From IMG/VR virus record IMGVR_UViG_3300025120_010521: a stretch of DNA of 64,000 bases; one strand, 5' to 3'. Numbering within the stretch: the first letter of the stretch is position 1; each line of letters begins with the position of its first letter. The position numbers and the translations under genes were made by a program. This stretch comes from a virus (taxonomy: Duplodnaviria; Caudoviricetes). Of the stretch, positions 19,516 through 40,612 are shown piece after piece. The notes under the pieces were generated by a model that was not told the origin of the DNA, did not search any database, and saw only the letters and a program-made list of their open reading frames with translations.

Positions 19516-19874
19516 TCTTTTAAATATCCTTTTCTTATTTGTGTAGCACTAATTTTATGAATTTCTTCACCAAGGTCATGTTTAGTAAACGTATATCCTA
19601 CATCTCTTCCATAACTAATATCTACAATATTCGGAACACTAATAATATCATAATCGTGTTTAAATACGTATCCTTCTTTTGATAAATGCTCTTGTATTTT
19701 TAAACCAACCTGACCTCCTGCATATGGATTACTGTTATTAACTTCCATATCACGTATCATTATTACCACTTGCCCAGTTTCATTCATTGCTTTTTTAAAT
19801 AAAGCTGTATGCCCATCATGCCATGGTTGAAATCTTCCTAGCATTTGTGCTGTTGGTTTTTTACTATTGTACAC
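19512..19874 (-). CDS. Cytidylyltransferase-like (HxGH) nucleotidyltransferase
   Basis: GRFQPWHDGH and ISATQIR motifs. Confidence 0.85.
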   Translation of the reverse strand: MYNSKKPTAQMLGRFQPWHDGHTALFKKAMNETGQVVIMIRDMEVNNSNPYAGGQVGLKIQEHLSKEGYVFKHDYDIISVPNIVDISYGRDVGYTFTKHDLGEEIHKISATQIRKGYLKE

Positions 19875-19876
19875 AA

Positions 19877-20743: not shown

Positions 20744-20745
20744 AT

Positions 20746-21408
20746 CTACCTTTGCTTCATATTTTTACACACACCTGCAAGTGTTTCTTCATTTACATCA
20801 ACATTAACAACTAACCAATACGCAGGATCAGGTGTTGTATTAAAAAGATAATGCATTTTAGCAGTATCAACAAAATATAAGATTCCTTGTTGCCATTGTA
20901 AAACTTTATCTTCTAATATAAATGTCATACCAGGAGTGTCACAATTCTTTAACGGCATTATTAATCTAAATGTATCAAAAATTAATTTATTTGATTGATG
21001 AAAATCATATTCATCTGGATGATCTCTATGTGGAGGAAAAAATCCACCTGTGTTTAATTTTAAAATATGTGTTCTAAATATATGTCCTTTAAATGGTTCT
21101 AAACATTCTTGTAATGACTGCCAATCAAATACCGGCGTTGGTGTTTTAAAGTCTCTTTCGGTCCACTCTGTTCCATTTTCTTTATTATATTCATATACAC
21201 TATCTAAATCTGGTCTACCAGATAGTCCGCCATCTAAACTTGTAATACTTAAACCTTCTCTAGGATAACTTTTTCTTGGATTATACTGTACATAATCAAA
21301 CTGTTTTTCAGTCCAATCAATAAATGCAGAAGAATCCTTCATACGAAGTTTTAAAGGATACTGTGCTCCAAATGTTATTAGATCTCTGTATAAACTGTTT
21401 TTACTCAT
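20746..21408 (-). CDS. Asp/Asn beta-hydroxylase-like 2OG-Fe(II) oxygenase
   Basis: GGFFPPHRD...LYFVDTAKMHYLFN. Confidence 0.7.
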   Translation of the reverse strand: MSKNSLYRDLITFGAQYPLKLRMKDSSAFIDWTEKQFDYVQYNPRKSYPREGLSITSLDGGLSGRPDLDSVYEYNKENGTEWTERDFKTPTPVFDWQSLQECLEPFKGHIFRTHILKLNTGGFFPPHRDHPDEYDFHQSNKLIFDTFRLIMPLKNCDTPGMTFILEDKVLQWQQGILYFVDTAKMHYLFNTTPDPAYWLVVNVDVNEETLAGVCKNMKQR

Positions 21409-22571
21409 TCGTATGTTTTATCTCCTGGCCATAATGGTAATTTAGTTCCTTTGGCTCTCTTTGGTATTTTTGAATCAGCACTTGATACACAGCTTTGTGA
21501 AATACAAGTCTGTGGCTTATCAAATAGTTTAAATCCTGTTTCAATATTTCCAAGAGGCTTATCGTGACAACTGTAACTTCTTTTTATACTACCATCTGGT
21601 TCTCTAATAATAATTGATCTATACCCTGACGAGCATTCCCATCCTTCAAATTTATTAAAATTAAATGCGTTAAATCTTTCTGCTTGATCCATAAAGTAAG
21701 GATTGTTTTCTTTGTCTCTAAATTCAACTTGAAAGTGTTGTGGTACTCCTTCCGAGTATGTTTGTTTTTGCATAGTACGATCATCATCTATTTTAAACGT
21801 TGGCTTTGGTCTTTTTACATGTTGATTTTTTTCTTCAGTAAATCCACGTTGTGGCATTCCGTTATGTAACTTGTCAAGCATTTCTTTCGTGTAGCCATGG
21901 ACAACTTCTGATGCTGTTGGATCGCTTTGAGCTTTGAGCGTAACGTTAATACCTCTATTGTGGAAATATAATGATTCCTCGTATAGTTCATTAAACCATT
22001 CTGGAACCATAACTTGGTTAATTGTAACTTGGACATCGTGTTCTTGTGCGAAGCATAACTTATCGGCAAAATCTGCTCTTTTTTCTTTTGAGTTAACGTG
22101 TTCCCTGTGGTATGAAGCCGTGATACTGGCTCTATGGAACGGTGCGACTGCTTTAACATATTGTTCAAACCATTTCATGTTTCTACTGCAATTACTTGTC
22201 ATATGGACAGAAGTATAATTAGTGTTTTTTGTATCATCAGCAAGATGCTGAAGAATATCAAGGTAACCAGGATGAAACGTAGGCTCGCCTCCAGAAAGAC
22301 TGAAGTGGAAACTATTAAATCCTCTATCTCTTGCTTGTCTTTTAATCTCGTCAATGGTAGCAAGACAAAGCTCAGTAGGCCTATGATCTTTTCTGTCACT
22401 TCTAGCATACGGCCAACAGTAGCTACACCTGTAATTACAAAACCTACCAAGAAGCCAACTGACTGTAAAAAGATCCCTGTAAAGCATAGTACGTTGTCCA
22501 ACACGTACGAGATTGTTGTACGGAATTTGTGTAAAATCATATTCACTCCATTTTAAATCACTCATTGCCAA
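21405..22571 (-). CDS. Radical SAM protein
   Basis: CNYRCSYC, LSGGEPT, C-terminal C...C...C...C. Confidence 0.88.
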   Translation of the reverse strand: MAMSDLKWSEYDFTQIPYNNLVRVGQRTMLYRDLFTVSWLLGRFCNYRCSYCWPYARSDRKDHRPTELCLATIDEIKRQARDRGFNSFHFSLSGGEPTFHPGYLDILQHLADDTKNTNYTSVHMTSNCSRNMKWFEQYVKAVAPFHRASITASYHREHVNSKEKRADFADKLCFAQEHDVQVTINQVMVPEWFNELYEESLYFHNRGINVTLKAQSDPTASEVVHGYTKEMLDKLHNGMPQRGFTEEKNQHVKRPKPTFKIDDDRTMQKQTYSEGVPQHFQVEFRDKENNPYFMDQAERFNAFNFNKFEGWECSSGYRSIIIREPDGSIKRSYSCHDKPLGNIETGFKLFDKPQTCISQSCVSSADSKIPKRAKGTKLPLWPGDKTYE

Positions 22572-23791
22572 TAGTCCTTAAATTCTGGATACACTTCTAG
22601 AAAATTAGTTTTGTTTAATCTATCCATGGTTTCAATATATTCCCTTGTTGATTTTGGCAATGTATCATTGTTTATATCAGTATTATTCATATAATCTAAT
22701 ACATAGTTTGACCATTTAATTATTTTGGCCAAACGGTTCTCCTTAATATTTTCTAAACTTTCTATTTTATTATAAACTCTTTTTGTTATAATGTCTTTCA
22801 TTTTCTTTGGTATATATTGAATATTTAGAGCTTCTGGGTATTGTACCAAACTACAATGAAAGGAACAATCCAAAGATGTATAATAATCAATAATATCATC
22901 AAATCTAGAAATATTGTACAACGAAACTGTACATGTTGTTGTTAAATTAAAAACTTCTTGTGATAATTTAGATTTTAATGTTTTTATATTATCTTCAACT
23001 GCTTGTAAATTACTTCCTGTTCTTAAATAACTGTGTATTTTTTTATCACCATCTAAACTTACACGACAGTTTATCTTTTTAAATTTACTCCAAAGGTCAC
23101 TAATATGCTTATCCTTTAATACTATATTGTTTAAATTTGTATTATATTCTAGTGTAATGTTATGAGCATAGGGTAAAAGTTTTTCTAATGCATCATAATG
23201 CTGTGGCTGTATCAAAGGCTCGCCACCTGCTATAATTATTTCTTCTACTCTTGGTCCTATGTCATTTACTACTTGATTAAATGTTTCTATAGGTAATTTT
23301 GCTATGCCTCTCCATGTGCTGGTTTCAGTTAGTTGATATTTGTCAAACAAACGTTTAACCTCATCATGCTTGTTAACTGCTACTGCCCAAGTTGAACTGT
23401 ATATCGAAGAACAATGTCTACATCTTAGATCACACACATTACCAAAACGTAATTCAATTGTTTTAACGTTCATAGGTAATTCACCGTCATTTACTTCTTT
23501 TAATACTTGAGGAATATGCTTTTCATAGTCTTGATTACATTGTTGCCTAGTTGATATGACATTTGCTTTTTCCATATCCCAACAACTTTTACAGCCGTCA
23601 TGCTGTACTCCATTCATTAAATTATCACGTATTTTTTTATAGTTGTCATTGTTCCATATTTCTTTTAAAGTTTTATCTCCATAATGTCCTAGCGAATCAT
23701 GATTACGCCAACAAGCACTTACAAAGCCTTTTGGCTTTAGGTTCATGTGTATAAATGGCATTATACAAAATGTATTTGATTGTTTGCTCAT
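22562..23791 (-). CDS. Radical SAM protein with N-terminal twitch-like domain (start probably 23791 rather than 23830)
   Basis: FCIMPF...ACW...CKSC; CDLRCRHC; AGGEP; the ATG at 23791 gives an ATGA overlap with the upstream stop. Confidence 0.85.
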   Translation of the reverse strand: MSKQSNTFCIMPFIHMNLKPKGFVSACWRNHDSLGHYGDKTLKEIWNNDNYKKIRDNLMNGVQHDGCKSCWDMEKANVISTRQQCNQDYEKHIPQVLKEVNDGELPMNVKTIELRFGNVCDLRCRHCSSIYSSTWAVAVNKHDEVKRLFDKYQLTETSTWRGIAKLPIETFNQVVNDIGPRVEEIIIAGGEPLIQPQHYDALEKLLPYAHNITLEYNTNLNNIVLKDKHISDLWSKFKKINCRVSLDGDKKIHSYLRTGSNLQAVEDNIKTLKSKLSQEVFNLTTTCTVSLYNISRFDDIIDYYTSLDCSFHCSLVQYPEALNIQYIPKKMKDIITKRVYNKIESLENIKENRLAKIIKWSNYVLDYMNNTDINNDTLPKSTREYIETMDRLNKTNFLEVYPEFKDYWQ

Positions 23792-25035
23792 GTCAATGCC
23801 TCTGATAGTTCTAAAAAAGTAGTACGCCAATTCTCATTACGAACACTATCAATTAGATTTGCTTTCTCAAAGAACTCTGTCGACAGATCACTAGAAGCAT
23901 AATTTAATCCTTTTAATATTTTATCATAACTTTTTTCTATAATAGATATTAATTCCTTATTACTTTGATATGTTAACAATAACTGATCTTTATGTTGTAA
24001 TACTAAATTTTTAATTTTAGATTGATTAGATATACTTAAATTTGATAATGACAGATACTGTGGTGTTTGTGCTAAATGTAAATCTAAAAAGTTTTTTGTT
24101 ATAATACTTTTTGGAAAATAATTAGCTATCCAATTAATAAACTCTTTTAGATACAAAACATTATATATTGTTAAGGTATGTCCAATTACAACTGAAACGT
24201 TTGTATGCTGTTGACTTACATCTACCCACTTTGTAGCTGATTCTGTAACCTTATCCCATTGCGAACCTTTTCTTAAAAACTCTGCTCGTTTTTCAATTGC
24301 ATCTAAACTTAGATCTATTTTAGCACTTTTAAAATTTGGTATTAGTTTTCTATATTGATCTTTTGGAAAGAAAGAACAATTTGTAAAAACTTCTAAATGT
24401 ATATTTTTTGCTATATCCCACTTAACTAAATTAGCTAGAAAAGTTTGAAATTGATCATTTAAAAAAGGTTCACCGCCTGTTGCTTTTACATTTTTTAAAT
24501 GTTTTACTGTATCAAATGATATTGTCGATAACGATTGATTTGTTTTTGGAAGTTGTTTTATATTAATATATTCGTGGTGTTCATTTCCAAAAAAGTTTTT
24601 TATTAGTTCACTATCTTTATCTAAATCTTCATCCCATGTTGTTGATAGTTTTGGTCCACATGATCTACATTTTAAATTACAATACCTACCTGTTTGTATT
24701 TCAAGAAACTCTAACTGTGTTTCATCATATTTAGGGTTTTGTTTATAATCATAACTTATTTCACCATTTGTATCAATAGCACTTTCACGCATTGATTTTA
24801 TACCAGCTTGTTCATCTTGATAACATCTCCAACATCCTTTAATTTGTTTACCTTCTAATGATTTTTTTCTTAACGTATCCCATATCTTATTGTATCCATT
24901 ATCAAAAGACTTTGAATATTCTAATGAATCATCTTTATATCGACAGCATGGAACAATAGAGCTATCAGGAACCTGCATGACAGCACCCCGAAAAAGGTAT
25001 GGACAGTAAGTTTTATTGTTTTTTAGATCAATCAT
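23788..25035 (-). CDS. Radical SAM protein with N-terminal twitch-like domain
   Basis: YCPYLF...PCCRY...CWRC; CNLKCRSC; TGGEP. Confidence 0.85.
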   Translation of the reverse strand: MIDLKNNKTYCPYLFRGAVMQVPDSSIVPCCRYKDDSLEYSKSFDNGYNKIWDTLRKKSLEGKQIKGCWRCYQDEQAGIKSMRESAIDTNGEISYDYKQNPKYDETQLEFLEIQTGRYCNLKCRSCGPKLSTTWDEDLDKDSELIKNFFGNEHHEYINIKQLPKTNQSLSTISFDTVKHLKNVKATGGEPFLNDQFQTFLANLVKWDIAKNIHLEVFTNCSFFPKDQYRKLIPNFKSAKIDLSLDAIEKRAEFLRKGSQWDKVTESATKWVDVSQQHTNVSVVIGHTLTIYNVLYLKEFINWIANYFPKSIITKNFLDLHLAQTPQYLSLSNLSISNQSKIKNLVLQHKDQLLLTYQSNKELISIIEKSYDKILKGLNYASSDLSTEFFEKANLIDSVRNENWRTTFLELSEALT

Positions 25036-25158
25036 TTTTTTATAAGTATACAGTAAAATCTTAATTAAATCAATATAAAGTGTGTACTTTATATATTTAC
25101 CACTTGCATTCTATGATAAATATATGTATAATATTGCTTATTAGGAGAAATAATTAAA

Positions 25159-25974
25159 ATGTTAGTACGTAAAAAATATCAATTACCAACAATGTGGAAA
25201 TTTGAGAACCATAAGTTTGACATCGAACGATTAAAGAAAGAAGCACTTGTTTTAGCTAATGACTATGGTAATGTGATGGACACTAATAAAGCATTATGTT
25301 CAAACAATCACGAATTAGTTATGAGTGTGTATAAACATTTTAAACAAATTAATCTTACAGAATTTGATCCGCAAGGAGAAGCACCTACTGTTGAGTCTTG
25401 TGAAGTAATGGGTAAGACTGCGGGAACTGGTGATGAAGCAATTAGTAAAATTGCAAAATATAGGTTAAAAGCAAGACGTGGAGAAAACTTAGATCCAGCA
25501 TTAAACGAGCATAACTATAATACTCCTACTGAAAAGTATAAAGGTACATACTTTGAAGAAGTAGTAAACTCTTTTAATTCAGATGCAATAAGAGTAAGAC
25601 TTGTAAGGTTAGATCCCGGCAAGACTCTTACGCCACATATTGATTACGATCCGACTTATGCTGTAAGAGTTATTATTCCTATCTTTGCAGAAGAAGAAGC
25701 AACAAATTACTTTTGGAGAAAAAGTAAAGAAGAAGCATATCATTTAAAAGCAGATGGTTCAGCATATTTCTTAAATATAGGATTTACTCATACTGTAGTA
25801 AATTCTGGAAATACACCAAGAATTAGCTTAATGTTTAGTTTAAAAGATCAATCAGACTTACAAGAAATACCAGAGAATGATTGGAATGAAAATAACAACA
25901 TGGGCAACTTGCAAATACAAAAAGCATATAAAGAACATAAGGCCCAGGCAGATGCCCAACCATTGGCTGTTTAA
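25159..25974 (+). CDS. Asp/Asn beta-hydroxylase-like 2OG-Fe(II) oxygenase
   Basis: LTPHIDY...FLNIGFTHTVVN...PRISL. Confidence 0.7.
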   Translation: MLVRKKYQLPTMWKFENHKFDIERLKKEALVLANDYGNVMDTNKALCSNNHELVMSVYKHFKQINLTEFDPQGEAPTVESCEVMGKTAGTGDEAISKIAKYRLKARRGENLDPALNEHNYNTPTEKYKGTYFEEVVNSFNSDAIRVRLVRLDPGKTLTPHIDYDPTYAVRVIIPIFAEEEATNYFWRKSKEEAYHLKADGSAYFLNIGFTHTVVNSGNTPRISLMFSLKDQSDLQEIPENDWNENNNMGNLQIQKAYKEHKAQADAQPLAV

Positions 25975-26278
25975 AACAGAAGTAAAAGAATCAAATATAC
26001 ACGGACAAGGAAGGTTTGCATTAGAAAACATTCCAATTGGTCGACAGGTAGTTGAGCTTAAAGGCTCTATTGTTCCAAAAGAACAAGCACCTCAAAAATT
26101 TCCTGTTAGTTTAACTCACAACATGGATTGTGAAGATACATTTATTAATCACAGCGAAGATTCAAATTTAGCATACTTAGGTGGTACTAGTTTTGTTTCT
26201 GCTAAAAATATAAAAAAGGGTGAAGAATTAACTATGGACTATAAAGAATTTGCTGGTGATAGAAAATTTTTATTCTAA
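25952..26278 (+). CDS. Stand-alone SET-domain protein (lysine methyltransferase fold)
   Basis: SNIHGQGRFA...FINHS..SN...IKKGEELTMDY; start taken at ATG 25952. Confidence 0.85.
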   Translation: MPNHWLFKTEVKESNIHGQGRFALENIPIGRQVVELKGSIVPKEQAPQKFPVSLTHNMDCEDTFINHSEDSNLAYLGGTSFVSAKNIKKGEELTMDYKEFAGDRKFLF

Positions 26279-26388
26279 TGAACGATCCATTAAGTTATAA
26301 ACTTAAAAAACTTATTGAGTGGCTATTAATACAGCAGGTTCCTGCTATTTTAGTAATACTATTTTTAATTTACTACTTTATATTTTAA
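26278..26388 (+). CDS. Small membrane protein (36 aa), not in ORF track
   Basis: MNDPLSYKLKKLIEWLLIQQVPAILVILFLIYYFIF; TAATG coupling to the SET gene. Confidence 0.5.
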   Translation: MNDPLSYKLKKLIEWLLIQQVPAILVILFLIYYFIF

Positions 26389-26525
26389 TCTTGTTTTTCA
26401 ATTAATTTTGCAAAATACTTTGTTAAAGGATTATTTGGCTGATAGTGGTTATATTCTGAACGTACATATTTACGTTTTTTAACTGTTGTTTTACGTTTCT
26501 GTTTCTTTTTTTGACTATCCTGCAT
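26385..26525 (-). CDS. Small basic protein (46 aa), not in ORF track
   Basis: MQDSQKKKQKRKTTVKKRKYVRSEYNHYQPNNPLTKYFAKLIEKQD; GATAAATA 8 nt upstream. Confidence 0.5.
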   Translation of the reverse strand: MQDSQKKKQKRKTTVKKRKYVRSEYNHYQPNNPLTKYFAKLIEKQD

Positions 26526-26542
26526 CAAAGCAATATTTATCA

Positions 26543-27232
26543 TTATTGATTAAATTTTGCTTTCCAATCCATATTAGCAAATGGCCAGCCTGTAATAACA
26601 ACACGACAATTTGGTTTAGCATTTGTAACAGGATTTACATAATGAGCTGATCCTACTCGCATTAGCACACAAGAGTTTCTTTTTGGTTTAATTGCTAATG
26701 GACCTACTAGATAAGGGTCTTGTTTTGATTCTTTAAATAATTTTGTTTTAAATTCTTCCCAGTTTTCTTTTTCTTCAGGATGAAAGTTAAAATGATCTGC
26801 TAACATATATTCGTTTGGCAATACTAATTCGCCGCCTTCTTCATTTGTTAGATAATGTATAAAAACAAATTCACCATATATATCTTTACGTTCAGTGTGG
26901 ACATTATATATACTTTTTGGATTAAATGTTTTAGTAGTAAATTGTAAAACATTTTTTTCATTTATATCTTCTATTAGTATTGGTTTATATACATCTGCTA
27001 ATATTTCATTTAGTTTATTAATTACTGCTAATACTATATCATTATCTTGATGTACATTATATTTTACATGATTATAATTGTAGTATGACTTACTAATAAT
27101 ATGTGGTTGTTCATTACCATCTAGTTCTTTAGTTTCTGATTCACGGATATGACTTAATGCTTTGTCTACAAGAGCATCATCGATAAAATGTTCTGTGTGC
27201 CATACTTCATCATAAACTAATTCATTCCACAT
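26543..27232 (-). CDS. 2OG-Fe(II) oxygenase (prolyl-hydroxylase-like)
   Basis: YNVHTE...GGELV...KPKRN...AHYVNP...RVVI. Confidence 0.65.
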   Translation of the reverse strand: MWNELVYDEVWHTEHFIDDALVDKALSHIRESETKELDGNEQPHIISKSYYNYNHVKYNVHQDNDIVLAVINKLNEILADVYKPILIEDINEKNVLQFTTKTFNPKSIYNVHTERKDIYGEFVFIHYLTNEEGGELVLPNEYMLADHFNFHPEEKENWEEFKTKLFKESKQDPYLVGPLAIKPKRNSCVLMRVGSAHYVNPVTNAKPNCRVVITGWPFANMDWKAKFNQ

Positions 27233-27999
27233 TAATGACAGTCCTCTGGCTTTGGTTGTTCATGACGTTTAGAGTCAAAGTAATAATTAAAATTACAATG
27301 TTGATCTAAACCATTAATGAGATCTTTTGTAGCATAAGGCCATCCAGTGACTACTTGTCTTGATTCTTTAGTTACTTCGCCTTGCAAAGGATTTACATAA
27401 TGAGCTGACCCTATTGCAAATACTACACACTTATTATACGTTGGCTTTACAACTACATCATCTAAATAACGCATTGGAAATCCTTTTGATTCTACTAACT
27501 GTATATTTTCTTGCCATCTAGCTTCTTGTTTAGGAAACTGCTGTAAATGTTTTTCTACTCCATTGCGACTAGGAAATACTAACTCACCACCTTCTTCAGA
27601 AGAAAGAAAATGCATAAAAGCATATGGACCGTATTTGTCAATTGGCTCAGTATGTAGATCATACCAACCACGTTTTGAAAAACTCTTTGTGAATAACTGT
27701 AAGCCTTCTAAGTTATCCATAGGTACTGTTGCTTCTGTAAGTGGTTGCATTAGCTCATTCACTTTACCCATATATAAATCAATCAATACTCTATCTTTAT
27801 GTATATCAGTTCTATGCACTGTGTAATTATATGTTGTTGCATTAACTCCTGAATTTCTAAAGTTTGGCAATATTGCTTCGCCAGGTTCTAGTTCAGTTTT
27901 ACCTGCTGTTAACATATTTTGTTTTATTTGACTAATTGTACTGTCATCAAGAAAGTTATCATATTCCCATAACTCATTCTTTACTAATTCTTTCCACAT
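27232..27999 (-). CDS. 2OG-Fe(II) oxygenase, tandem paralog of 26543-27232
   Basis: MWKEL/MWNEL starts; YDLHTE, GGELV, SAHYVNP, TGWP shared. Confidence 0.65.
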   Translation of the reverse strand: MWKELVKNELWEYDNFLDDSTISQIKQNMLTAGKTELEPGEAILPNFRNSGVNATTYNYTVHRTDIHKDRVLIDLYMGKVNELMQPLTEATVPMDNLEGLQLFTKSFSKRGWYDLHTEPIDKYGPYAFMHFLSSEEGGELVFPSRNGVEKHLQQFPKQEARWQENIQLVESKGFPMRYLDDVVVKPTYNKCVVFAIGSAHYVNPLQGEVTKESRQVVTGWPYATKDLINGLDQHCNFNYYFDSKRHEQPKPEDCH

Positions 28000-29780
28000 T
28001 ATCTTTCGCTCCCTATAGCAACAATCTCAGTTGGTTTAATACGAGCGTCTGTACCATACATACTCATATCAAATTCTTTTTTCCATTCTGATATATCATA
28101 TTTAACCAACTTCTCTGGAAATACTTTTGACAAATCTTCTACAAACTGATCTTGGTTATGCCAAAACTGATATATTTCATCTGCACGTAAACATCTTGAA
28201 AAATACAAATATGTTGCTAAATCTTTTACTTCTGTTCTTGGCTCATCTTTAAATATATTTCTAATTATTTGTCTGTTCTTTTCTACTAGTTTAATCATTA
28301 AAGGCATTTTATCTAAATGCTTATAAAACCATTTAACTTGGAACTCTATATCATGCCCAGTATCAAATAAATCTTTCATAGTATGATTTAATGCTCTTGA
28401 GTTATGAAAGTTATGGTAGAACCACCAATAGTCAAACATACGAACAATTTCATCTTCATCATATGAAAAACATTTATGCATAATTTCTATCTCTTCAAAT
28501 TCATATGTGCTACGTTCATCTCTGTACTCTGGATGATTATGCAATTGCTTATATCCTAGTCCTGAAAACGAATAAGGAAATGCAAGTATCTTAGATTCTA
28601 CCTTGTGTTCTTTTTGAAACTTATCTGTATATAATTCTGTATTAGGTACTAGGTTTAAAAAGTATGATCGCATAAAATCAATACCAAGCTCATAATCTTT
28701 ATTCAATGAGTATAACCAACTGTCTGCTGTTTCGCCAGGTAAAGCAATAATCATTTCTGATGTTACTGGTAATCCTTTAGACTTAAAACTATCAATTAAA
28801 GGTAATAGTTTATCATTGTTAATATTTGCTCTGTTAATAACTTTTAATGTTTCTTTTGCATGTGTTTGGAAACTTACTTTCAAATTACGTTGATCAGCAT
28901 CTAAATTGTTATGTATTATATCGATAATCTCTGGTAACCATTTACTACCATTCTTTGCAAGTCCACTATAAGATATTTTAGGATTATTGCCTGTTGCTTC
29001 TTTATTTGCTTTCATTTTTTTAACGACATCTAAATCTCTAGGTAACATACCAAAGTTAGCATCAAGTATCTCTACTTCTGCTATGTTGGTGTGTTTGTAT
29101 ATAAAGTCTAATTGTTCATTTACAGGATCCATATCAAACTTTGTAACTTTTGATCTTGCTTGTCCACCCCAATCGCAGAATGCACATTTAAAAGGACAAC
29201 CACGATTAGTTTCAAATGATGCTTTAACTCTTTTTTCTTCAGCAAGTATAGAATCAAATACTCCATCTAAATATGGTGTAGGCATTTCATGAGTTTCAAT
29301 TTGATATAATTTTTTTCCTACCTCTACGTTATTCCATCCTAACCCAAAACTACCGTCATGTGTACTCATTGGAGTATCAATATTTTGTAAAAACTTACTA
29401 ATTAACTTTTCACCAGGACCTACCCAAAATATATCTATATAAGGATGATCTTTTGCAAACTTTTCTGCAAGTTTAGGATCTTCAGGTACATTAGGTCCAC
29501 CATACATTGTAATACCATTTGGGTTTACATCTTTGTAATGACTCATCAATTGATCATTATATGCTTGGTTCCATACGTAACAAGTTAACCCAAATACATC
29601 AATATTTTTAAACTCTTCTGTATATTCTTCTACAGGTTTATATTTGTATATTGGATCATTGAATTTATAATTTGATTTTATTTCTGGAATCTTATTACAG
29701 TAACTAATAAGGCATGCCGCGGCATATGGCAACCATGTTTCATGTATAACCGATACTGTGCCTAATTGTACTGTTTTCAT
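27999..29780 (-). CDS. Cobalamin-dependent (class B) radical SAM protein
   Basis: N-terminal B12-binding-like domain (GLTCYVWN, YGGPNV, GPGE) followed by ETNRGCPFKCAFCDWG. Confidence 0.85.
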   Translation of the reverse strand: MKTVQLGTVSVIHETWLPYAAACLISYCNKIPEIKSNYKFNDPIYKYKPVEEYTEEFKNIDVFGLTCYVWNQAYNDQLMSHYKDVNPNGITMYGGPNVPEDPKLAEKFAKDHPYIDIFWVGPGEKLISKFLQNIDTPMSTHDGSFGLGWNNVEVGKKLYQIETHEMPTPYLDGVFDSILAEEKRVKASFETNRGCPFKCAFCDWGGQARSKVTKFDMDPVNEQLDFIYKHTNIAEVEILDANFGMLPRDLDVVKKMKANKEATGNNPKISYSGLAKNGSKWLPEIIDIIHNNLDADQRNLKVSFQTHAKETLKVINRANINNDKLLPLIDSFKSKGLPVTSEMIIALPGETADSWLYSLNKDYELGIDFMRSYFLNLVPNTELYTDKFQKEHKVESKILAFPYSFSGLGYKQLHNHPEYRDERSTYEFEEIEIMHKCFSYDEDEIVRMFDYWWFYHNFHNSRALNHTMKDLFDTGHDIEFQVKWFYKHLDKMPLMIKLVEKNRQIIRNIFKDEPRTEVKDLATYLYFSRCLRADEIYQFWHNQDQFVEDLSKVFPEKLVKYDISEWKKEFDMSMYGTDARIKPTEIVAIGSER

Positions 29781-30379
29781 AATACCTCTGAAACATCTTT
29801 TATAGTTCCATTATGTTGATGCAATATTACTGCGTTGGTTGGTTTCCATTTATAATTTGGATCAATGTAATAGCTATAGATAAACTGTATCATATTTGAT
29901 TTTGGCTTATCGTGAAACACTAGATCTTTTTCAAGTGTTAGCTTTTTATAATCTTCATCTTCAAACCAACTGTTATCGCCACCTACGTATTTTTTCTTAT
30001 GCTGAAATAATTTATTAATTGCTACATCTTTAACATCATGTGTCCAGTAATAATGTTTAAACCCATTGTCTTTTGCCCAAGCAATTTGATGCTTCATCAT
30101 TTTAAATCCATAACGTCCATGCCTGTGTTTTTTAAGAATATGATATCTGCATTTCCTAATAGACTCTGGAGTGCCTGTGATAAAACTTCTTTCAGCATAA
30201 CTTATACTAGCAACTTCGTTATCAACTAATGCTAACCACAAACTGCTTTTATCATCTAATTCATCTATGTTAAATTTTTCTTTTTTATAAGTTCCGGAAC
30301 TTCCTTCTATTACTGCTTGTATGAGAAAGTCTTCAACTATTGGTTTATATGCTGAAGTATATTTTAATATTTTTTCCAT
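29777..30379 (-). CDS. GNAT-like acetyltransferase (start probably 30379)
   Basis: YHILKKHRHGRYGFKMMKHQIAWAKDNG resembles GNAT motif A. Confidence 0.5.
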   Translation of the reverse strand: MEKILKYTSAYKPIVEDFLIQAVIEGSSGTYKKEKFNIDELDDKSSLWLALVDNEVASISYAERSFITGTPESIRKCRYHILKKHRHGRYGFKMMKHQIAWAKDNGFKHYYWTHDVKDVAINKLFQHKKKYVGGDNSWFEDEDYKKLTLEKDLVFHDKPKSNMIQFIYSYYIDPNYKWKPTNAVILHQHNGTIKDVSEVL

Positions 30380-30380
30380 A

Positions 30381-31043
30381 TTATATGTACCATGATTCAA
30401 TAGATATATTTTTGATATGCACATTCTTTGGTTGGTTGACCATATAGTATACTGATTCAGCTATCTTATCTGATGGTACTAGTTTTACTCCCATAGGAAT
30501 TGTTTTTTTATATTCAGGAGATTTTTCAAATAGTCCTGTGTCTACCCAACCTGGTCTTATGATAGAAACTTTACATTTTCCTTTTCCATAAACACCAAAG
30601 TTATCAACAACTGTTTCTAATGCAATTTTTTGATGATAATAAGGTTTGACTATTTCAGCTGGCTCATTATGATCTTTTGCTGTTGACCCTATGCAAATAA
30701 TCAGTTTATTTTGTTTTTGCCACATTTCATAAACAGCATAGAGTAAATCTAACTGGCTCCATTGTAAGTGAGCATTGTTGATGAATATATCATAGTCTTT
30801 GATTTCTCTCAAAAATCTTTTTGTATCTTCTGTGTATTCAAAGTCTTGGTGTTTATCAGATTCTTGATCAGTAGTATATTGTTTTCCGATGTTTTTTAAA
30901 TTAAAACCTGTGGCACGACTAAAGCCAACAACATCATGGCCTTGTAAAATTCCCATATTGTATATGGATTTACCAATTCCGGATGTATGACCTGTTACTG
31001 CTATTTTTAAATTTTTAGAAGATTGAGTCTTCCTTTTTCCCAC
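30381..31043 (-). CDS. Short-chain dehydrogenase/reductase-like protein (paralog of 18997-19515)
   Basis: IAVTGHTSGIG, FINNAH, YYHQK, PGWVDT. Confidence 0.8.
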   Translation of the reverse strand: MGKRKTQSSKNLKIAVTGHTSGIGKSIYNMGILQGHDVVGFSRATGFNLKNIGKQYTTDQESDKHQDFEYTEDTKRFLREIKDYDIFINNAHLQWSQLDLLYAVYEMWQKQNKLIICIGSTAKDHNEPAEIVKPYYHQKIALETVVDNFGVYGKGKCKVSIIRPGWVDTGLFEKSPEYKKTIPMGVKLVPSDKIAESVYYMVNQPKNVHIKNISIESWYI

Positions 31044-31044
31044 T

Positions 31045-31797
31045 TTATTTTACCTCTAATTGTTTTATGAACCAACCACCCATATCAAACTCCCACCATT
31101 TATGTTGAAAATTTGAATTGTTAGGATTTGCATGATGATTATTATGCCAGCCTTCACCCCACATTAATATTCCTAACATTGGAACATTAGTTGAGTTATC
31201 AGGAGTTTCATGGTTTCTATATCCAATCATATGAGAAAGAGTGTTAATAAATGATCCTGCATTCCAAAGTATCATTGCTGGAAATAGATAAGCTGATACT
31301 AGTAACATTGGATCAATCATATACCATGTTCCGGCAATTGCTAAATGTATTAAAATATAATATCTATGAGTGAACAAATGAAATTTATTTCTAATAAGTT
31401 TAACAACGTACCTCGGTTTTGGCTTATCAAACATGCTTAACCATTGAACTTTAAAAAAGCCTTTGTACGATGGTGAGTGTGGATCATCTTCGCTATCAGT
31501 ATGCACATGGTGTTCTCTATGAATAGCTACCCATCCTATAGTTGATCCGGTTAACCCGTATGTACCTGCTAGTGATCCAAAGTAGTAAAACCATTTAGGC
31601 GCCTTCCAACTTGCATGACTTAACAATCTATGATATGTCATTGTCATTCCAAAACATCCAGTAATAAAATATACAAAAAATGCTATCACCCAATGATACC
31701 AAGCACCATACACAATCATAGGTATAATGCTTAGATGTGCGATCATCTGAGCAACAAATAAAAAATACTGATCTTTAGTTGTTTCTTGCTTTTTCAT
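31045..31797 (-). CDS. Membrane fatty-acid desaturase (delta-9 type), second copy
   Basis: HRLLSH, HREHH, GEGWHNNHH, WWEFD. Confidence 0.92.
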   Translation of the reverse strand: MKKQETTKDQYFLFVAQMIAHLSIIPMIVYGAWYHWVIAFFVYFITGCFGMTMTYHRLLSHASWKAPKWFYYFGSLAGTYGLTGSTIGWVAIHREHHVHTDSEDDPHSPSYKGFFKVQWLSMFDKPKPRYVVKLIRNKFHLFTHRYYILIHLAIAGTWYMIDPMLLVSAYLFPAMILWNAGSFINTLSHMIGYRNHETPDNSTNVPMLGILMWGEGWHNNHHANPNNSNFQHKWWEFDMGGWFIKQLEVK

Positions 31798-31853
31798 GGT
31801 TTTCCTTTATTAACACAATTATAACAATATTTATCCTAATTTACAAGTCTATA

Positions 31854-33716
31854 TTAAAACTTTAATTTCCATCCAACTGTTATATTTCTTCCGCCTTGAT
31901 TATAACCATCTGGTCTTTCATACTGATCATCTGTTAAGTTTTTTACGTTTAAAACTATTTCAGAATCTTGTGTTAGATAATAACCTGCTGTAAGATCTGC
32001 TGTTGTTCTTTCTTTAACAGTAATAGTTGACCAGTTAACTGAGTCAGTATCTCTATGATCACCATAATATAATATGCTAGGTGATATATAATAGTTATCT
32101 TTAGCATAAGTTACACCAGATTTCCAAGTAGTATGAGGTCTACGTTTTAACCAAGTACCTGATGAATCTTGTGCTGATGTTAGTGCTACATTGTTCACAA
32201 AGCTAAAATTACCAACATAGTAAGTAAAGTCAATGTCTGCACCCTTCATATTAGATGTTCCATTACTATCATTATTATATGTTGAATTAGAGTATGTTAT
32301 CATGTCTTTGATATCTGTTGAATAAAAAGCAATATCAAAATTATAAGATTTATCTTTACGATTATATCCTATTTCATTACTAACAGATTGTTCTGCTTTA
32401 AGATTTACGTTACCTGTGTAACCATAGTTATCTGCACCATATAGTTCATACAGTGTTGGTGCTTTATATCCTGTTGATTGGCTTATACGAAAACCATTAT
32501 ATGCCGCTCCAATTGAATATGTTGATTGACCATTTGCAATAGAATGCTCGTCATGTCTTAAACCACCTGATACAATTAGATTGTTTGTAAATGAATAATC
32601 AAAGTTATGATATATCCCTGTTACTGATGCTGACTTATCAACTGTAGAATTATAGCTACCTGTATTATTAAAGTCTACATCAAATCCAGTTACATCTACA
32701 CCTGTTTTAGTTGATACTTGGTCTGAACTTGTTACCCAATCTAAAGATCCATGTGTTGCAACAGAATCATAATTGTCTATTTCTGTTCCATTTACGTATT
32801 GTCTATCCCATATAGTATGATCAAAAACTGTTTTTATCTTTCCATACTTTACATCAGTTGACGTCTGCATTTGTCCAAAGTAAAACTTTGTTTCATTTGT
32901 ATAATCCAAATCATCTGCACCTGAGGCATCAATATCTGCGTTGGTTGTATTTGTTACTCCTGTAAATTTAATCTTTGTATCATCAAGAGTTATAACATGC
33001 CCAACATTAAATCCTAATACATCATATCCATCTGGTTCTGTACCCTGTGGATAAACTGATATCCCGTCTGACTGTTCTGTATATATTCCAAAGGTAAAAA
33101 AATCTTTACCATATGTATAAGCCATAGTGTTTGTGTCATGTGACCCTTGCGATATGGAAAATTCATTTTGTTTGTAATCAGATGTTTGTATATCAACAAC
33201 ACCACCAACTGCATTTGGTCCGTAGTTAGTACTCATTGGTCCTGTGTATAAATGTAAACCATCTGCAAAATGTATGTTAATGTTGTTTAAATCTGTAGCA
33301 CCATTTGTTGTTGAGTAGTCTGTAATTGCTGACCCGTTAATTGTTACAAGTGTGTGATTTGAATTTGTTCCTCTTGTAAATAACGATGTCTGTTGTCCTG
33401 CTGGTCCTGATCTAACTGCATTAAAACTTGGTGCGTCTTCTAATGCTTCTGATAATATGCTAGACCCTTCTTTCTTTTCATCGTCTAACCAAATAAACGA
33501 ATCTGTGTATATTCTATCTGCTTTTTGAGATGCTGTCATTGTATGAAATATTGGTATGTTTATTACCAATGAATCACATACAATTGTTTCATCCATCATT
33601 TCTTCCCAATAACATTCATTCTCTCCTGCTTTTGCAGGTTTAATTAAAAATGCTACAAATAATATTGCTAATACTATTATTCCTCTTCCGATGTTTCTTT
33701 TGCCTTCACTATTCAT
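31854..33716 (-). CDS. btuB: TonB-dependent receptor, BtuB (vitamin B12)-like
   Basis: Signal peptide; DETIV TonB-box-like; plug GQQTSLFTRGTNSNHTLVTING and GPMSTNYGPNAVGGVVDI; C-terminal YERPDGYNQGGRNITVGWKLKF. Confidence 0.8.
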   Translation of the reverse strand: MNSEGKRNIGRGIIVLAILFVAFLIKPAKAGENECYWEEMMDETIVCDSLVINIPIFHTMTASQKADRIYTDSFIWLDDEKKEGSSILSEALEDAPSFNAVRSGPAGQQTSLFTRGTNSNHTLVTINGSAITDYSTTNGATDLNNINIHFADGLHLYTGPMSTNYGPNAVGGVVDIQTSDYKQNEFSISQGSHDTNTMAYTYGKDFFTFGIYTEQSDGISVYPQGTEPDGYDVLGFNVGHVITLDDTKIKFTGVTNTTNADIDASGADDLDYTNETKFYFGQMQTSTDVKYGKIKTVFDHTIWDRQYVNGTEIDNYDSVATHGSLDWVTSSDQVSTKTGVDVTGFDVDFNNTGSYNSTVDKSASVTGIYHNFDYSFTNNLIVSGGLRHDEHSIANGQSTYSIGAAYNGFRISQSTGYKAPTLYELYGADNYGYTGNVNLKAEQSVSNEIGYNRKDKSYNFDIAFYSTDIKDMITYSNSTYNNDSNGTSNMKGADIDFTYYVGNFSFVNNVALTSAQDSSGTWLKRRPHTTWKSGVTYAKDNYYISPSILYYGDHRDTDSVNWSTITVKERTTADLTAGYYLTQDSEIVLNVKNLTDDQYERPDGYNQGGRNITVGWKLKF

Positions 33717-34242
33717 AGAGACCTTTCCTGTTAACTACCATTAAGTAGATGTTGTGTAAAGGTCGAGATAATGCTATAGTCAGTGACACCATTAAGGCAG
33801 TATAAACAACTGTGCCTAACAGTGTATTTTGGAAAAATGGTATTGCCATTGTGTAACACATTATTAATCCTTCTAATGTGTTAGGATAGTAGTCCCACAT
33901 AATCCATACTGCAAAATTTGTTACTACAAAAAATAACACTGATGATCCTATTGTCATTATTGCTAATGGTATGTATTTGCCAAACTGCATAGCCCATCTG
34001 CTAATAACTGTGGACATTGCTATTGATCCATAAACCCAAAGCATATAAGGATGAAACCCTATAAACACATCTCCAATAAACATTGCCATTAATGGTACTG
34101 CTATTGCTATCCAACGATCGTTAACGATGTATGGTGCAAATATAGCCGCGGCCAATATTGGTGTAAAGTTTGGTGGATGTGGTATGAGTCTACCTATGGC
34201 GAGAATGCCAGAAATATATAAAAATGACAGTATAATCTTCAT
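33709..34242 (-). CDS. DUF6580-like inner-membrane protein (putative cobalamin transport component)
   Basis: RLIPHPPNFTPILAAAIF, FFVVTNFAVW, CYTMAIPFFQNTLLG; several TM helices; overlaps btuB start. Confidence 0.7.
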   Translation of the reverse strand: MKIILSFLYISGILAIGRLIPHPPNFTPILAAAIFAPYIVNDRWIAIAVPLMAMFIGDVFIGFHPYMLWVYGSIAMSTVISRWAMQFGKYIPLAIMTIGSSVLFFVVTNFAVWIMWDYYPNTLEGLIMCYTMAIPFFQNTLLGTVVYTALMVSLTIALSRPLHNIYLMVVNRKGLYE

Positions 34243-34245
34243 AAT

Positions 34246-34321
34246 AGTATTACCCCAACCTCTATTGTTAAATACGGTAAATTGTAATACTATTTATAAC
34301 ATACTTTCCAATATCTGTCAA
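34246..34321 (-). promoter_or_regulatory. Overlapping sigma70 and TATAAATA promoters with a 5'-UTR hairpin upstream of the B12-uptake genes
   Basis: TTGACA(34316-34321)-17-TATAAA; TATAAATA 34291-34298; AGTATTAC/GTAATACT stem 34246-34291. Confidence 0.55.
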
Positions 34322-34335
34322 TATGCTAAATCTAA

Positions 34336-34674
34336 CTAATTTTTTTTTCTAAAAGCGGAATTAAACATTCTATGCACGTTTTGATGAACAGCATTTTCTA
34401 GTGATTCCATATCTATATAAATTTCCATATTTACTATGTCGTGATAGCTTTCTGCAACTTTGTCCCAATCAACTTGGCCATGTACAGGAATAGTATTATA
34501 GATATCATCACTAGTCATTAGGCTTGTTGAACCATCTCTATGAAATAGTTTAATTTTATCAACAAAATTTGCTGGAATTTTTTTTGGATGTATCTCATGC
34601 ATGATACGATCAAATTCTTTGTGATCTCTATCATTTCGAGAAGGTATAAATTTTCTGTTTGAGTCTTGTGTCAT
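34336..34674 (-). CDS. Hypothetical protein
   Basis: 112-aa ORF. Confidence 0.65.
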   Translation of the reverse strand: MTQDSNRKFIPSRNDRDHKEFDRIMHEIHPKKIPANFVDKIKLFHRDGSTSLMTSDDIYNTIPVHGQVDWDKVAESYHDIVNMEIYIDMESLENAVHQNVHRMFNSAFRKKN

Positions 34675-34676
34675 AA

Positions 34677-34717
34677 AAAACCTGCCTATGTACTAGTATT
34701 TATCATAGACAGGTTTT
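34677..34717 (-). terminator. Terminator hairpin whose loop contains a late-promoter motif
   Basis: AAAACCTGTCTATG-ATAAATACTAGTA-CATAGGCAGGTTTT then T-tract and ATG. Confidence 0.6.
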
Positions 34718-34724
34718 AGTAAAC

Positions 34725-35351
34725 TTATGAAGTCGTTTCTGCGGTAGCTTCTTTTTTAGGTCTACCTCTTGGTCTTTTTGGTTCAGCAAAAATAGGCTCT
34801 TTGCCTAATTTTCTCTGTATACCAGGTGAAACTGATTCAGCTTCTTCACGTTTTCTCATTGCGTCAGCTTCCATTAATTCTGCTTGAATTAATAAATTTC
34901 TTGCAATACCATCTTCGTTAGTTTCATCTAGTGGCTTTGCCATTTCGCCTGCTTTAGTTGATGAATCTGGTGTTTGCGGAATTGCTGGATCTGTTTTTGT
35001 TTCAGAAACCATTTTTTGGTATGCATTAAACTCTTTCAAAGGAAGTGTATCTGTAGTTGTCGGTAACAATGTTACTGTGTCTACTGGAATTCTTCTTAAG
35101 AAACCTTTTTCATGCAAAGTTGTTAGTATGTTTTTACCATCCCAAAACAACTTTCTGCCTAGCACTTCGTATAATTTATTAGATGCTTGAGCTTCTGGTG
35201 ATTCAACCGCCTGCATTAAACCATCGTGATATCTTTGTTCTAATGCATTGATGTCAACCACAAGACAGTTGTCTTGATCTTCTGGTATCGATGGAAATAC
35301 AACTACAACACGTCTGTTGGTTGAGTCCACTCTACCTGTATGTTTTATCAT
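34725..35351 (-). CDS. Hypothetical protein with C-terminal AT-hook-like motif
   Basis: Ends KRPRGRPKK. Confidence 0.7.
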   Translation of the reverse strand: MIKHTGRVDSTNRRVVVVFPSIPEDQDNCLVVDINALEQRYHDGLMQAVESPEAQASNKLYEVLGRKLFWDGKNILTTLHEKGFLRRIPVDTVTLLPTTTDTLPLKEFNAYQKMVSETKTDPAIPQTPDSSTKAGEMAKPLDETNEDGIARNLLIQAELMEADAMRKREEAESVSPGIQRKLGKEPIFAEPKRPRGRPKKEATAETTS

Positions 35352-35374
35352 TATTTTTCTCCTAATTGCAATTA

Positions 35375-35701
35375 TTATTTTTGTTCAGGTTGTTCCTGAT
35401 TAGGTTGTGCATCGCCAATTTTACCTTCGTCAATTGCTCCGCCTTCAGCTTCAGTTTTGCTTTTAGCATCTGCTTGAGCTTTCTGCTGATCTGCGACATG
35501 CTGTAAAAACTTTGTAAGTTTATCAGCTATACCACCAACGTTGGTAAGTTCATTGGCTCTGAACGCACCTCTTGAACTTGCTACGTCAATAACATTCAAC
35601 AAAGCCTGTAAGTCAGCAATTGACAATTGTGGTGCCTCTGCCGCTGGTGCTTGTTGTACTGCTTCTTGAGTAGATTCTTTTTGTGCTTGTTCTTCAGCCA
35701 T
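35375..35701 (-). CDS. Hypothetical protein
   Basis: AAGGAG SD; core LSIADLQALLNVIDVASSRGAF. Confidence 0.7.
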   Translation of the reverse strand: MAEEQAQKESTQEAVQQAPAAEAPQLSIADLQALLNVIDVASSRGAFRANELTNVGGIADKLTKFLQHVADQQKAQADAKSKTEAEGGAIDEGKIGDAQPNQEQPEQK

Positions 35702-39251: not shown

Positions 39252-39621
39252 TGATTGCTTTCTCTATCTTTTTGTAGTAGTCGTCAAATATTTCTGCTTC
39301 TTTGCTGTTTAGATATGCTACAGATCCAAAGCACGGATATCCATTTATACCAGTTGGAAACTGATCTTTCATGTAAGAATAAAACATGCATGGTCTATCC
39401 TGATGCATACCTTGACCCATATCTGGTGACATCAACATTAGTGGCATGAACACTGAAGCTATGTCTTGAGGATTTTGTATTTGAAAACTAGTAAACACTT
39501 CTCCACGATATACTTGTTGTGCTAGTTCTTTTAGAAATTCATTTGATTTTAAAGGACGTTTCTTACGACTTTTTTTATTAACTTTGTATTCTTTTATATC
39601 TTCTTTTTTTATTTCAAGCAT
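39241..39621 (-). CDS. Hypothetical protein
   Basis: 126-aa ORF in operon. Confidence 0.6.
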   Translation of the reverse strand: MLEIKKEDIKEYKVNKKSRKKRPLKSNEFLKELAQQVYRGEVFTSFQIQNPQDIASVFMPLMLMSPDMGQGMHQDRPCMFYSYMKDQFPTGINGYPCFGSVAYLNSKEAEIFDDYYKKIEKAINEV

Positions 39622-40612
39622 ATTCTTTCTTATTTTTGTATACTCCTTTTAATGCACAGCTTTTAATACATCTTGGTAGATGATTATCATGTGATGCATA
39701 CCATCTTTCTCTTAAAGATGTATAAAAATTATTCTGTAATATTTCACTAATTGTATTTTTTGTAAGATTATTAAAGTCTTTATCATTTGACATTACTACA
39801 TCTTTATATGATTTTTTAGATTGATCATACAAATAACAACAAGGCCACATAGTCATATCTGCACCTATATAAACTTCTGGTTCATCATAATGCTGGCATG
39901 TAATTGTTTTTACAATATCATTTATTGTTTTTACACTTTTTTCTTTTATTACTTTTTGTAATTTTGATAAATCGTTATGTGGTAATTTTGTTGATGTAGT
40001 TAATTGTATTTCCTTAGTCATTTTTTTAGTTTTATGAACTTTTTTTGCTAGAACATTACGTCCACTTGTTCTTTTAATAAATCTAAAACCAAATTCGTTT
40101 GCTAACTGTTTTGCTTTTTCATATTCATGTTCGTTATGAGCAAACGGAATAAACACCCATGCTCCATTTCCTCCAGCTTGTGAAAATGCTTTCATATTTC
40201 TTACAAGGATATCCCATTTAACATTTACTCGGTATATATGATTTGTGTCTTCAAATCCATCAACACTAAAATCAACTTTTAAATTTTTAACTTTAGCAAG
40301 TTTACTCCACCATTCAGGATTGTTATATCCTCCATTGGTACTAATAATAACATTACCACCTTTTTCACCCAACCATTGCGATATTTCTAAACATTGTGGG
40401 TGAACAATTGGATCTCCTAATACTCCACATAATTTAAATTCTTTATTTTTAACTGACTTTTCTGTTTGAAAAAGATGCATGATATTTTTTAATGATATTT
40501 CTGAATTTCCTCTTAATGACATTCCCATTTCTGTTCTAGCACATAACGGGCATTGTGCATTACAATTAGCACTAATTTCTAATTCATATTTTTTAATATC
40601 AGCTTCTATCAT
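39614..40612 (-). CDS. Radical SAM protein (paralog of 9693-10742)
   Basis: EISANCNAQCPLCART, GVLGDP, WPCCYL...CIKSC. Confidence 0.85.
   Translation of the reverse strand: MIEADIKKYELEISANCNAQCPLCARTEMGMSLRGNSEISLKNIMHLFQTEKSVKNKEFKLCGVLGDPIVHPQCLEISQWLGEKGGNVIISTNGGYNNPEWWSKLAKVKNLKVDFSVDGFEDTNHIYRVNVKWDILVRNMKAFSQAGGNGAWVFIPFAHNEHEYEKAKQLANEFGFRFIKRTSGRNVLAKKVHKTKKMTKEIQLTTSTKLPHNDLSKLQKVIKEKSVKTINDIVKTITCQHYDEPEVYIGADMTMWPCCYLYDQSKKSYKDVVMSNDKDFNNLTKNTISEILQNNFYTSLRERWYASHDNHLPRCIKSCALKGVYKNKKEYA

Follow-up and report, generated by a model that had tools for sequence, protein, structure and literature searches.

Why should a phage carry, close to an enzyme that depends on cobalamin (vitamin B12), genes for proteins of the bacterial outer and inner membranes? 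The question is raised by a 64-kb stretch of IMG/VR record IMGVR_UViG_3300025120_010521 (Duplodnaviria; Caudoviricetes), here called the window, in which a small DUF6580 membrane protein, a BtuB-like TonB-dependent transporter, and a radical S-adenosylmethionine (SAM) enzyme are encoded on the minus strand (33709-34242, 31854-33716, and 27999-29780, respectively). An earlier note on this DNA had read the first two as phage-borne B12 import across both membranes that feeds the third. The three genes are on the strand and at the positions that it gave, and the enzyme gene starts 2,074 nt downstream of the receptor stop, in keeping with its estimate of about 2 kb; the DUF6580 and receptor open reading frames (ORFs) share 8 nt (33709-33716). 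We consider it probable that the phage makes a two-membrane B12 import system of a BtuB-type receptor and DUF6580, most likely loading its own TokK-type methylase. The grouping of the receptor with BtuB, the cobalamin riboswitches on related modules, and the co-occurrence of the genes support the proposal of the earlier note to that same degree. Cobalamin is scarce in seawater and limits microbial growth there, and the viral auxiliary genes for vitamins seen so far are mostly for steps of synthesis, as with cobS and cobT of cyanophages, rather than for import.

In the mechanism that we propose, the phage would make a BtuB-family outer-membrane transporter and a DUF6580 inner-membrane carrier from a single two-gene unit. 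The pair would give cobalamin a minimal route through both membranes, one that operates without a periplasmic binding protein, an ABC pump, or an energy-coupling factor (ECF) module, with the energy coupling (TonB/ExbBD or an equivalent) provided by the host. The imported corrinoid would most likely load the TokK-type methylase encoded 2 kb downstream, which is part of a conserved cassette (desaturase-like enzyme, GNAT, methylase, a 255-aa protein, and a 2-oxoglutarate [2OG] oxygenase) within a larger island of radical SAM and oxygenase genes. The substrate, the routing of the corrinoid to the phage enzyme, and the energization are the parts of this scheme that we infer.

Cobalamin riboswitches on orthologous modules

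The strongest evidence tying the module to cobalamin is the presence of cobalamin riboswitches on its orthologs. With the Rfam AdoCbl-II model (RF01689, gathering score 36.5), we found a site directly upstream of the orthologous module in the cellular contig L005 (63.7 bits), whose receptor is 44% identical, and 5' of the module in three phage-type records, namely, L008 (a 324-kb contig, 84.1 bits), L014 (243 kb, 85.1 bits), and L020 (115 kb, 78.4 bits). A covariance model of our own (R1), built from four RF01689 sites and run on the window plus 95 loci and then on a second batch, recovered 30 sites among the former and 6 further strong sites in the latter. Each of the R1 sites is immediately 5' of the module and on its coding strand. 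They cover 16 IMG/VR loci, the isolate HIMB114, and about a dozen Pelagibacteraceae genomes, and they are also present at the nearest cellular relative, L170, and at the phage-like L171. On contigs of the jumbo-phage type, the AdoCbl-II sites are L008:7300-7378, L014:9369-9447, L020:9742-9822, and L171:7382-7476. The literature searched yielded no relevant paper treating cobalamin riboswitches together with phage genomes.

Where these relatives have the riboswitch, the window has the motif TATAAATA (34291-34298, minus strand), 49 nt upstream of the DUF6580 start codon. This motif is depleted in the window, with 5 sites against 14 ± 4.3 expected, and all five (10966-10973, 34291-34298, 52835-52842, 53082-53089, and 55561-55568) are on the minus strand, which is the coding strand; those copies that were placed against ORF starts are intergenic. 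The motif suggests a T4-type late promoter, and the copy at 34291-34298 would be a candidate promoter of this kind. A sigma-70 promoter upstream of DUF6580 was also considered; because the scan performed no better than shuffles (46 sites against 53 expected), a TTGACA-17-TATAAA match seen by eye was dropped. The copy at 53082-53089 precedes a glutamine riboswitch (53026-53073, minus strand; RF01739, 56.9 bits against a gathering score of 35), a metabolite sensor on the phage that has no relation to the B12 module. In metatranscriptome libraries, runs X18 and X19 (probably one data set) and X20 (another study) contain contigs that differ from the window by 0 to 3 mismatches; these cover the desaturase gene, both ends of the receptor gene, DUF6580, and the junction of the last two.

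The receptor groups with BtuB

The best NCBIfam model for the 620-aa receptor (Plug, 54.9 bits; beta-barrel, 88.6 bits) is TIGR01779 (TonB-B12) at 180.7 bits, with the next unrelated family at 69 bits. Among proteins of solved structure, Escherichia coli BtuB is the best sequence match, over the full length (E = 1.6e-21); Cir is matched in the plug only (8.6e-9). A structural model of the receptor predicted with AlphaFold (AF2; pLDDT 79.4, pTM 0.82) has E. coli BtuB as all of its top 12 Foldseek matches (E = 1.8e-33 to 3.5e-30, TM 0.78-0.85, rmsd 3.5-4.0 Å), followed by Cir at 2.5e-28. In a tree of 78 receptors, E. coli BtuB falls inside the group of matches and FhuA, FecA, FepA, and CirA fall outside it. 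The expectation that the receptor would group with BtuB and not with siderophore transporters is thus borne out by the profile, sequence, and fold rankings, the basal split of the tree having an SH-aLRT value of just 68.

The predicted protein has a signal peptide (...PAKA/GE), a plug, a beta-barrel, and a C terminus ending in ...KLKF. The E. coli TonB box DTLVVTA aligns with residues 52-58 (INIPIFH), where an alternating hydrophobic pattern is kept across the family; the model is disordered at this strand. Asp195 and Asp230 of E. coli BtuB, which we take to belong to its calcium site, align with the near-invariant Asp229 and Asp263 of the receptor. Before the TonB-box-like strand, the receptor has an extra N-terminal segment with two cysteines (C..13..C; window 33563-33626, residues 31-51). 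This segment is found in the phage receptors of the window and L008 clades (alignment A1, columns 47-65) and, among the aligned sequences whose context was checked, is absent from the cellular relatives P0024 and P0027.

DUF6580 as a putative inner-membrane cobalamin carrier

The 177-aa product of the gene overlapping that of the receptor is assigned to DUF6580 (PF20221, 151.5 bits), and this family adjoins the receptor in 44 of the 75 IMG/VR loci and in 16 Pelagibacteraceae loci. An AF2 model built from 22 homologs (pLDDT 88.5, pTM 0.81) retrieved only S-components of ECF transporters as its top 12 Foldseek matches. In the VIA-align ranking, the top entries are BtuM structures with hydroxo- and cyanocobalamin (8ovv/8c7p; Z 14.9/14.8, rmsd 2.7 Å over 155 residues), followed by RibU (13.8), FolT (13.0), BioY (12.5), and ThiT (12.1). 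BtuM, a solitary S-component of about 22 kDa, is a B12 transporter of organisms that lack an ECF module, and its gene lies together with btuB (PMC6072759). On the basis of the modeled fold, we propose that DUF6580 is a solitary inner-membrane cobalamin carrier with the six-helix S-component fold.

A sequence link between DUF6580 and BtuM was sought and rejected: no match was found, and the Pfam assignment is to DUF6580 alone. In view of this lack of sequence similarity, we describe DUF6580 as working like BtuM rather than as a member of its family. The conserved positions of DUF6580 are an invariant R..PHPPNFT motif, His22, and Asp58 and a near-invariant Cys129. No paper mentioning DUF6580 was found in the literature searched; the viral genomes lend independent support to assigning this uncharacterized family the role of an inner-membrane B12 carrier.

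A class B radical SAM methylase as the likely recipient

The 593-aa enzyme aligns with residues 21-395 of TokK (7kdx; E = 3e-49) across the cobalamin-binding Rossmann and radical SAM domains, its residues 15-190 corresponding to the cobalamin-binding domain, and with CysS at 2.4e-33. The CxxxCxxC motif for the cluster is formed by C195, C199, and C202 (PF04055, 43.3 bits). In TokK, Trp76 lies under the cobalt and Trp215 in the active site, and both are conserved only in TokK, ThnK, and CysS (10.1101/2021.07.10.451909). Both have counterparts in the phage enzyme: SCYVW76N of TokK corresponds to TCYVW70N (Trp76 to W70) and FCDW215G to FCDW204G (Trp215 to W204). The B12-binding model PF02310 has no match in the window enzyme or in G001 and does match homologs 44 to 47% identical to the window enzyme; the class B assignment is therefore based on the TokK alignment. 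The enzyme scores below the cut-off of the KedN5 family (155 against 700 bits). The identification in the earlier note of a class B, cobalamin-dependent radical SAM enzyme agrees with the TokK and CysS alignments, the CxxxCxxC motif, and the two conserved tryptophans, and on these sequence features the protein is a predicted cobalamin-dependent methylase of the TokK/ThnK/CysS type.

The module is carried by a marine jumbo phage

Encoded in the window are a T4-type DNA polymerase (phrog_262, 628.7 bits in a PHROG profile match), whose best isolated relatives are jumbo phages of 350 to 490 kb (Sinorhizobium phage Phosso, 52% identity; Agrobacterium phage Atu_ph07, 48%), and a 1,654-aa tail-fiber-like protein. 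A complete relative in IMG/VR of 328,149 bp, with direct terminal repeats and a CheckV completeness of 100%, has a polymerase 85% identical to that of the window and the same order of DUF6580, receptor, and, farther on, radical SAM gene. The gene order of the window is kept in 4 further metagenome contigs and matches in L001-L004 and L010-L013, and the stretch itself is detected in marine metagenomes from more than 10 studies. The polymerase, the tail-fiber genes, and the complete terminal-repeat relative thus confirm the viral origin of the contig, and on these comparisons we assign the window to a marine jumbo phage of about 330 kb. A misassembled or cellular contig was rejected on the same grounds, given that the 85% identical polymerase belongs to a terminal-repeat genome of 328 kb that has the module and that the synteny recurs in four metagenomes.

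As to the host, the housekeeping genes flanking the nearest cellular modules encode an aldehyde dehydrogenase and a SufB that are only 70% and 75 to 78% identical, respectively, to those of Pelagibacterales. The host would be a streamlined low-GC marine bacterium, possibly related to SAR11. Elsewhere in the window are six tRNA genes in two clusters (1741-2084 and 5706-6015, minus strand). On the related 324-kb contig, genes for ClpX, ClpP, ClpS, HSP20, ribosomal protein S21, glutaredoxin, and ThyX lie just upstream of the riboswitch-controlled module (L008/L009 1-7263).

Linkage of the module to the methylase

Orthologs of the methylase that are 83 to 95% identical occur together with the module in every checkable record of the lineage longer than 100 kb; both are present in the complete 328-kb genome, the 243-kb record, and the 324-kb contig. 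In G001 and the window clade, the module and the methylase gene are neighbors; the distance between them is 5 kb in L008 and 50 kb in G002. More widely, 45 of 169 loci have a class B radical SAM gene no farther than 10 kb from the module, among them loci of seven SAR11 genomes and of several other viral groups, and in the cellular L005, DUF6580 is followed directly by a gene with B12-binding and radical SAM domains. The co-occurrence of the three genes across phage genomes, which the earlier note had called for checking, is accordingly seen in all of the large records of the lineage, and class B genes beside the module extend it to SAR11 and to other viral contigs.

The same data bear on the alternative that survives best, which we nevertheless regard as unlikely: the module might import B12 mainly for the B12 metabolism of the host during a long infection, for example, for methionine synthesis or for class B radical SAM enzymes of the host, the proximity of the phage methylase being incidental. 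The 50-kb separation in G002, the many module-bearing IMG/VR loci that have no class B radical SAM gene within 10 kb, and the cellular relatives, which have B12-dependent radical SAM genes of their own beside the module, all speak for such a role. Against it stand the presence of both genes in every checkable lineage record above 100 kb and the conservation of the methylase, which is the highest of any gene of the region (ratio of nonsynonymous to synonymous substitution rates [dN/dS], 0.04-0.07). The complete relative, moreover, has no other B12-dependent enzyme family that we could see: PF02310 is absent, and its ribonucleotide reductase is of class Ia (NrdA, 1046 bits against a cut-off of 813; NrdB, 455 against 346), on which account a B12-dependent ribonucleotide reductase was rejected as the consumer.

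Profile searches of this complete 328-kb relative found no TonB_C domain, no EcfT/CbiQ, and no FecCD/BtuC-type permease. The remark that the window has no tonB and that the host's would be needed is consistent with this result.

Several observations weigh against import for the viral methylase. At the level of the receptor, the TIGR01779 score of 180.7 bits is to be read against a curated cut-off of 599.7 and that of NF007926 (124.7 bits) against one of 836, so we call the protein BtuB-like and not a BtuB equivalog; its identity to E. coli BtuB is just 20 to 25%, and its TonB-box-like strand (INIPIFH) is atypical. No PF03544 TonB_C match was found in four module-bearing SAR11 genomes (L089, which is HIMB114, L087, L088, and L093), each of which has a single ExbD/TolR-type gene. 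For DUF6580, the fold match to BtuM is only about 1 Z above those to the riboflavin and folate S-components; no match among solved proteins, BtuM included, was obtained from the PDB at E <= 10 with either the single sequence or a 22-sequence profile; and no context like that of BtuM Cys80 is evident, Cys129, His22, and Asp58 being at other positions. No riboswitch was found in the window by the Rfam gathering threshold, by a search of 33600-35500 at E <= 10, or with R1, and its closest relatives, L001 and L010-L013, have none either. The window clade has, on these comparisons, lost the riboswitch, and no B12-responsive control is hence evident for the phage of the window. The RNA-library contigs hint at expression of the module, but DNA carry-over is possible, and they give neither strand nor level. 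Finally, in addition to the wide spacing in the related record G002, four short viral fragments have the methylase and no receptor, although these are 7 to 19% complete and hence uninformative as to the absence of the receptor.

Selection, receptor turnover, and other roles for the receptor

All three genes are under purifying selection in the phage lineage, with dN/dS values of 0.08 to 0.27 for the receptor, 0.09 to 0.17 for DUF6580, and 0.04 to 0.07 for the methylase. The receptor diverges far faster than the methylase; for L008, the identities are 36 and 89%, respectively. In a 60-sequence receptor tree from a quick, unbootstrapped search, the sister of the window clade (SH-aLRT 100) is a clade with the cellular L005 and L170, and L008-type receptors fall into another subclade. 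For L074, whose polymerase has 64% identity to that of the window, the receptor is sister to genomic Pelagibacteraceae receptors. Receptors from three subclades, with cellular sequences between them, are thus found in phages that have the polymerase or the methylase (89% identical) in common, and the simplest reading of the tree would be repeated capture or replacement of the receptor from hosts. We put forward more tentatively, at somewhat less than even odds, that a lineage of marine jumbo phages captured the module from its hosts at least three separate times, in several cases with the host's cobalamin riboswitch, to supply the viral methylase; if so, B12 limits the replication of these viruses.

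Rapid divergence of a surface protein also invites a different explanation, in which the receptor, at the cell surface, would counter other phages or colicin-like toxins, whether through superinfection exclusion, through masking, or as a decoy, and uptake would be secondary or lost. BtuB is a known receptor of phages and colicins, the window clade has lost the riboswitch, the phage receptors have the extra Cys..Cys segment at the N terminus, and the receptor is 63% identical to its L013 counterpart where its neighbors are 92% identical. For outer-membrane beta-barrel proteins of huge phages, one of them a TonB-dependent receptor of Lak phages, receptor interference has been proposed, too (10.64898/2026.10.24.761521). 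We nonetheless judge this role improbable, owing to the inner-membrane carrier and the B12 riboswitches of the relatives: the receptor is translationally coupled to a carrier that has no role in a decoy, and sister phage modules that are repressible through a B12 riboswitch make sense only for uptake. The plug, barrel, and TonB-box-like strand, moreover, have been kept under purifying selection. Least probable, and in our view a slim chance, is that the pair carries another corrinoid or related molecule (cobinamide, pseudocobalamin, or a lower-ligand precursor) or another vitamin. In favor of this are the score of the receptor, which falls short of the curated cut-off for BtuB equivalogs, the variety of vitamins carried by S-component folds (RibU and FolT being within about 1 to 2 Z of BtuM), and the control of salvage genes, too, by AdoCbl-II riboswitches. 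Against it, cobalamins are what this class of riboswitch senses, the profile, sequence, and fold rankings all put BtuB first, and the recurrent neighbor is a cobalamin-dependent enzyme.

Relation to known systems

The components of the module proposed here to import B12 for the viral methylase are of known kinds; new are their presence on a phage and their association with a cobalamin enzyme of the virus. The closest cellular systems are the SAR11 operons of an RF01689 riboswitch, BtuB, and DUF6580, in which the two families are likewise neighbors, often with class B radical SAM genes beside them. In SAR11 the receptor comes first, whereas phage contigs have DUF6580 first, and the copy in the window is phage-borne and has lost the riboswitch. 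E. coli BtuB (PDB 1NQE-1NQH, 2GSK) shares with the window receptor the architecture of a plug and beta-barrel in about 600 residues, and orthologs of the window receptor are, like it, under cobalamin riboswitch control. The window receptor differs in being encoded by a virus, in its extra Cys..Cys segment, atypical TonB-box-like strand, and lack of a riboswitch, and in being paired with DUF6580, where the E. coli protein is paired with BtuCDF. BtuM of Thiobacillus denitrificans (PDB 8C7P, 8OVV) resembles DUF6580 as a small protein of S-component fold with an adjacent btuB-type gene and no ECF module, the latter checked here in the complete 328-kb phage relative; DUF6580 belongs to a different Pfam family, and the essential loop-3 Cys80 of BtuM has no evident counterpart in it. 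TokK, ThnK, and CysS (PDB 7KDX, 9N1B) are C-methylases with the same cobalamin-binding and radical SAM domains, CxxxCxxC motif, and pair of tryptophans. The C-terminal 200 residues of the phage enzyme are unaligned with them, and its setting is an island of oxygenases and radical SAM genes in place of their carbapenem or cystobactamid cluster.

The 22-strand TonB-dependent receptor of Lak huge phages (10.64898/2026.10.24.761521) is comparable as a receptor on a very large phage genome. The preprint of October 2026 that describes it favors receptor interference and has 0 occurrences of B12, BtuB, or cobalamin (10.64898/2026.10.24.761521). The receptor of the window, in contrast, belongs to the BtuB type, has an inner-membrane carrier as its partner, and is connected with riboswitches and a B12 enzyme. 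Among 50,697 deposited phage records, bacterial contaminants aside, we found no TonB-dependent receptor; relatives of the window receptor among deposited phage genomes were confined to contaminating Salmonella records and short fragments, and the literature searched contained no paper linking a phage receptor to B12. If the proposal of phage-borne B12 import is true, the replication of phages can be limited by the supply of a cofactor, metabolite-sensing RNA on phages serves nutrient uptake, and infected cells can alter B12 fluxes and become B12 sinks in the sea.

Neighboring genes and the enzyme island

Three genes separate the receptor from the methylase, and all of the genes of this run are on the minus strand. 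The first encodes a membrane di-iron, fatty-acid-desaturase-like enzyme (31045-31797, 250 aa; PF00487, 51.7 bits; DesA family, 106.7 bits), which is found beside the radical SAM gene at 73 to 90% identity in L001, L008, L010, and L013. It is followed by a short-chain dehydrogenase/reductase (30381-31043, 220 aa; adh_short and SDR family matches) that is kept in some relatives only, being present in L010 and L013 and absent from L001 and L008. The third, directly upstream of the methylase, encodes a GNAT-type acyltransferase (29777-30424, 215 aa; PF00583, 22.3 bits) with orthologs 74 to 82% identical in L001, L008, and L010-13; in L185 as well, a GNAT gene precedes a radical SAM homolog of 46% identity. 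On the far side, the methylase gene is abutted by that of a conserved 255-aa protein (27232-27999), the stop of one and the start of the other sharing a base. Its orthologs, 72 to 91% identical, lie directly after the radical SAM gene in L001, L008, L010, and L013, and the protein has no match in Pfam, NCBIfam, or PHROG. The co-directional run ends with a 2OG-Fe(II) oxygenase (26543-27232, 229 aa; PF13640, 33.6 bits) that is kept in L001 and L010-13.

The wider enzyme island spans 12808-27232 and 39614-40612 and holds four more radical SAM/SPASM genes, a SET-domain protein, an Asp/Arg-hydroxylase-like protein, 2OG oxygenases, a second desaturase, a carbamoyltransferase, a UDP-glucose dehydrogenase, and an FNR. 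On other contigs of 220 to 330 kb (L184 and L185), the methylase family occurs within a conserved island of the same mix, with genes of the radical SAM/SPASM, SET, Asp/Arg-hydroxylase-like, 2OG-oxygenase, desaturase, and GNAT types. The B12 module draws attention to a large and conserved set of radical SAM and oxygenase enzymes, an as yet unexplored phage island that would need B12. A flavodoxin (7596-8039) and the FNR-type reductase (15543-16304), both encoded in the window, could supply reducing power.

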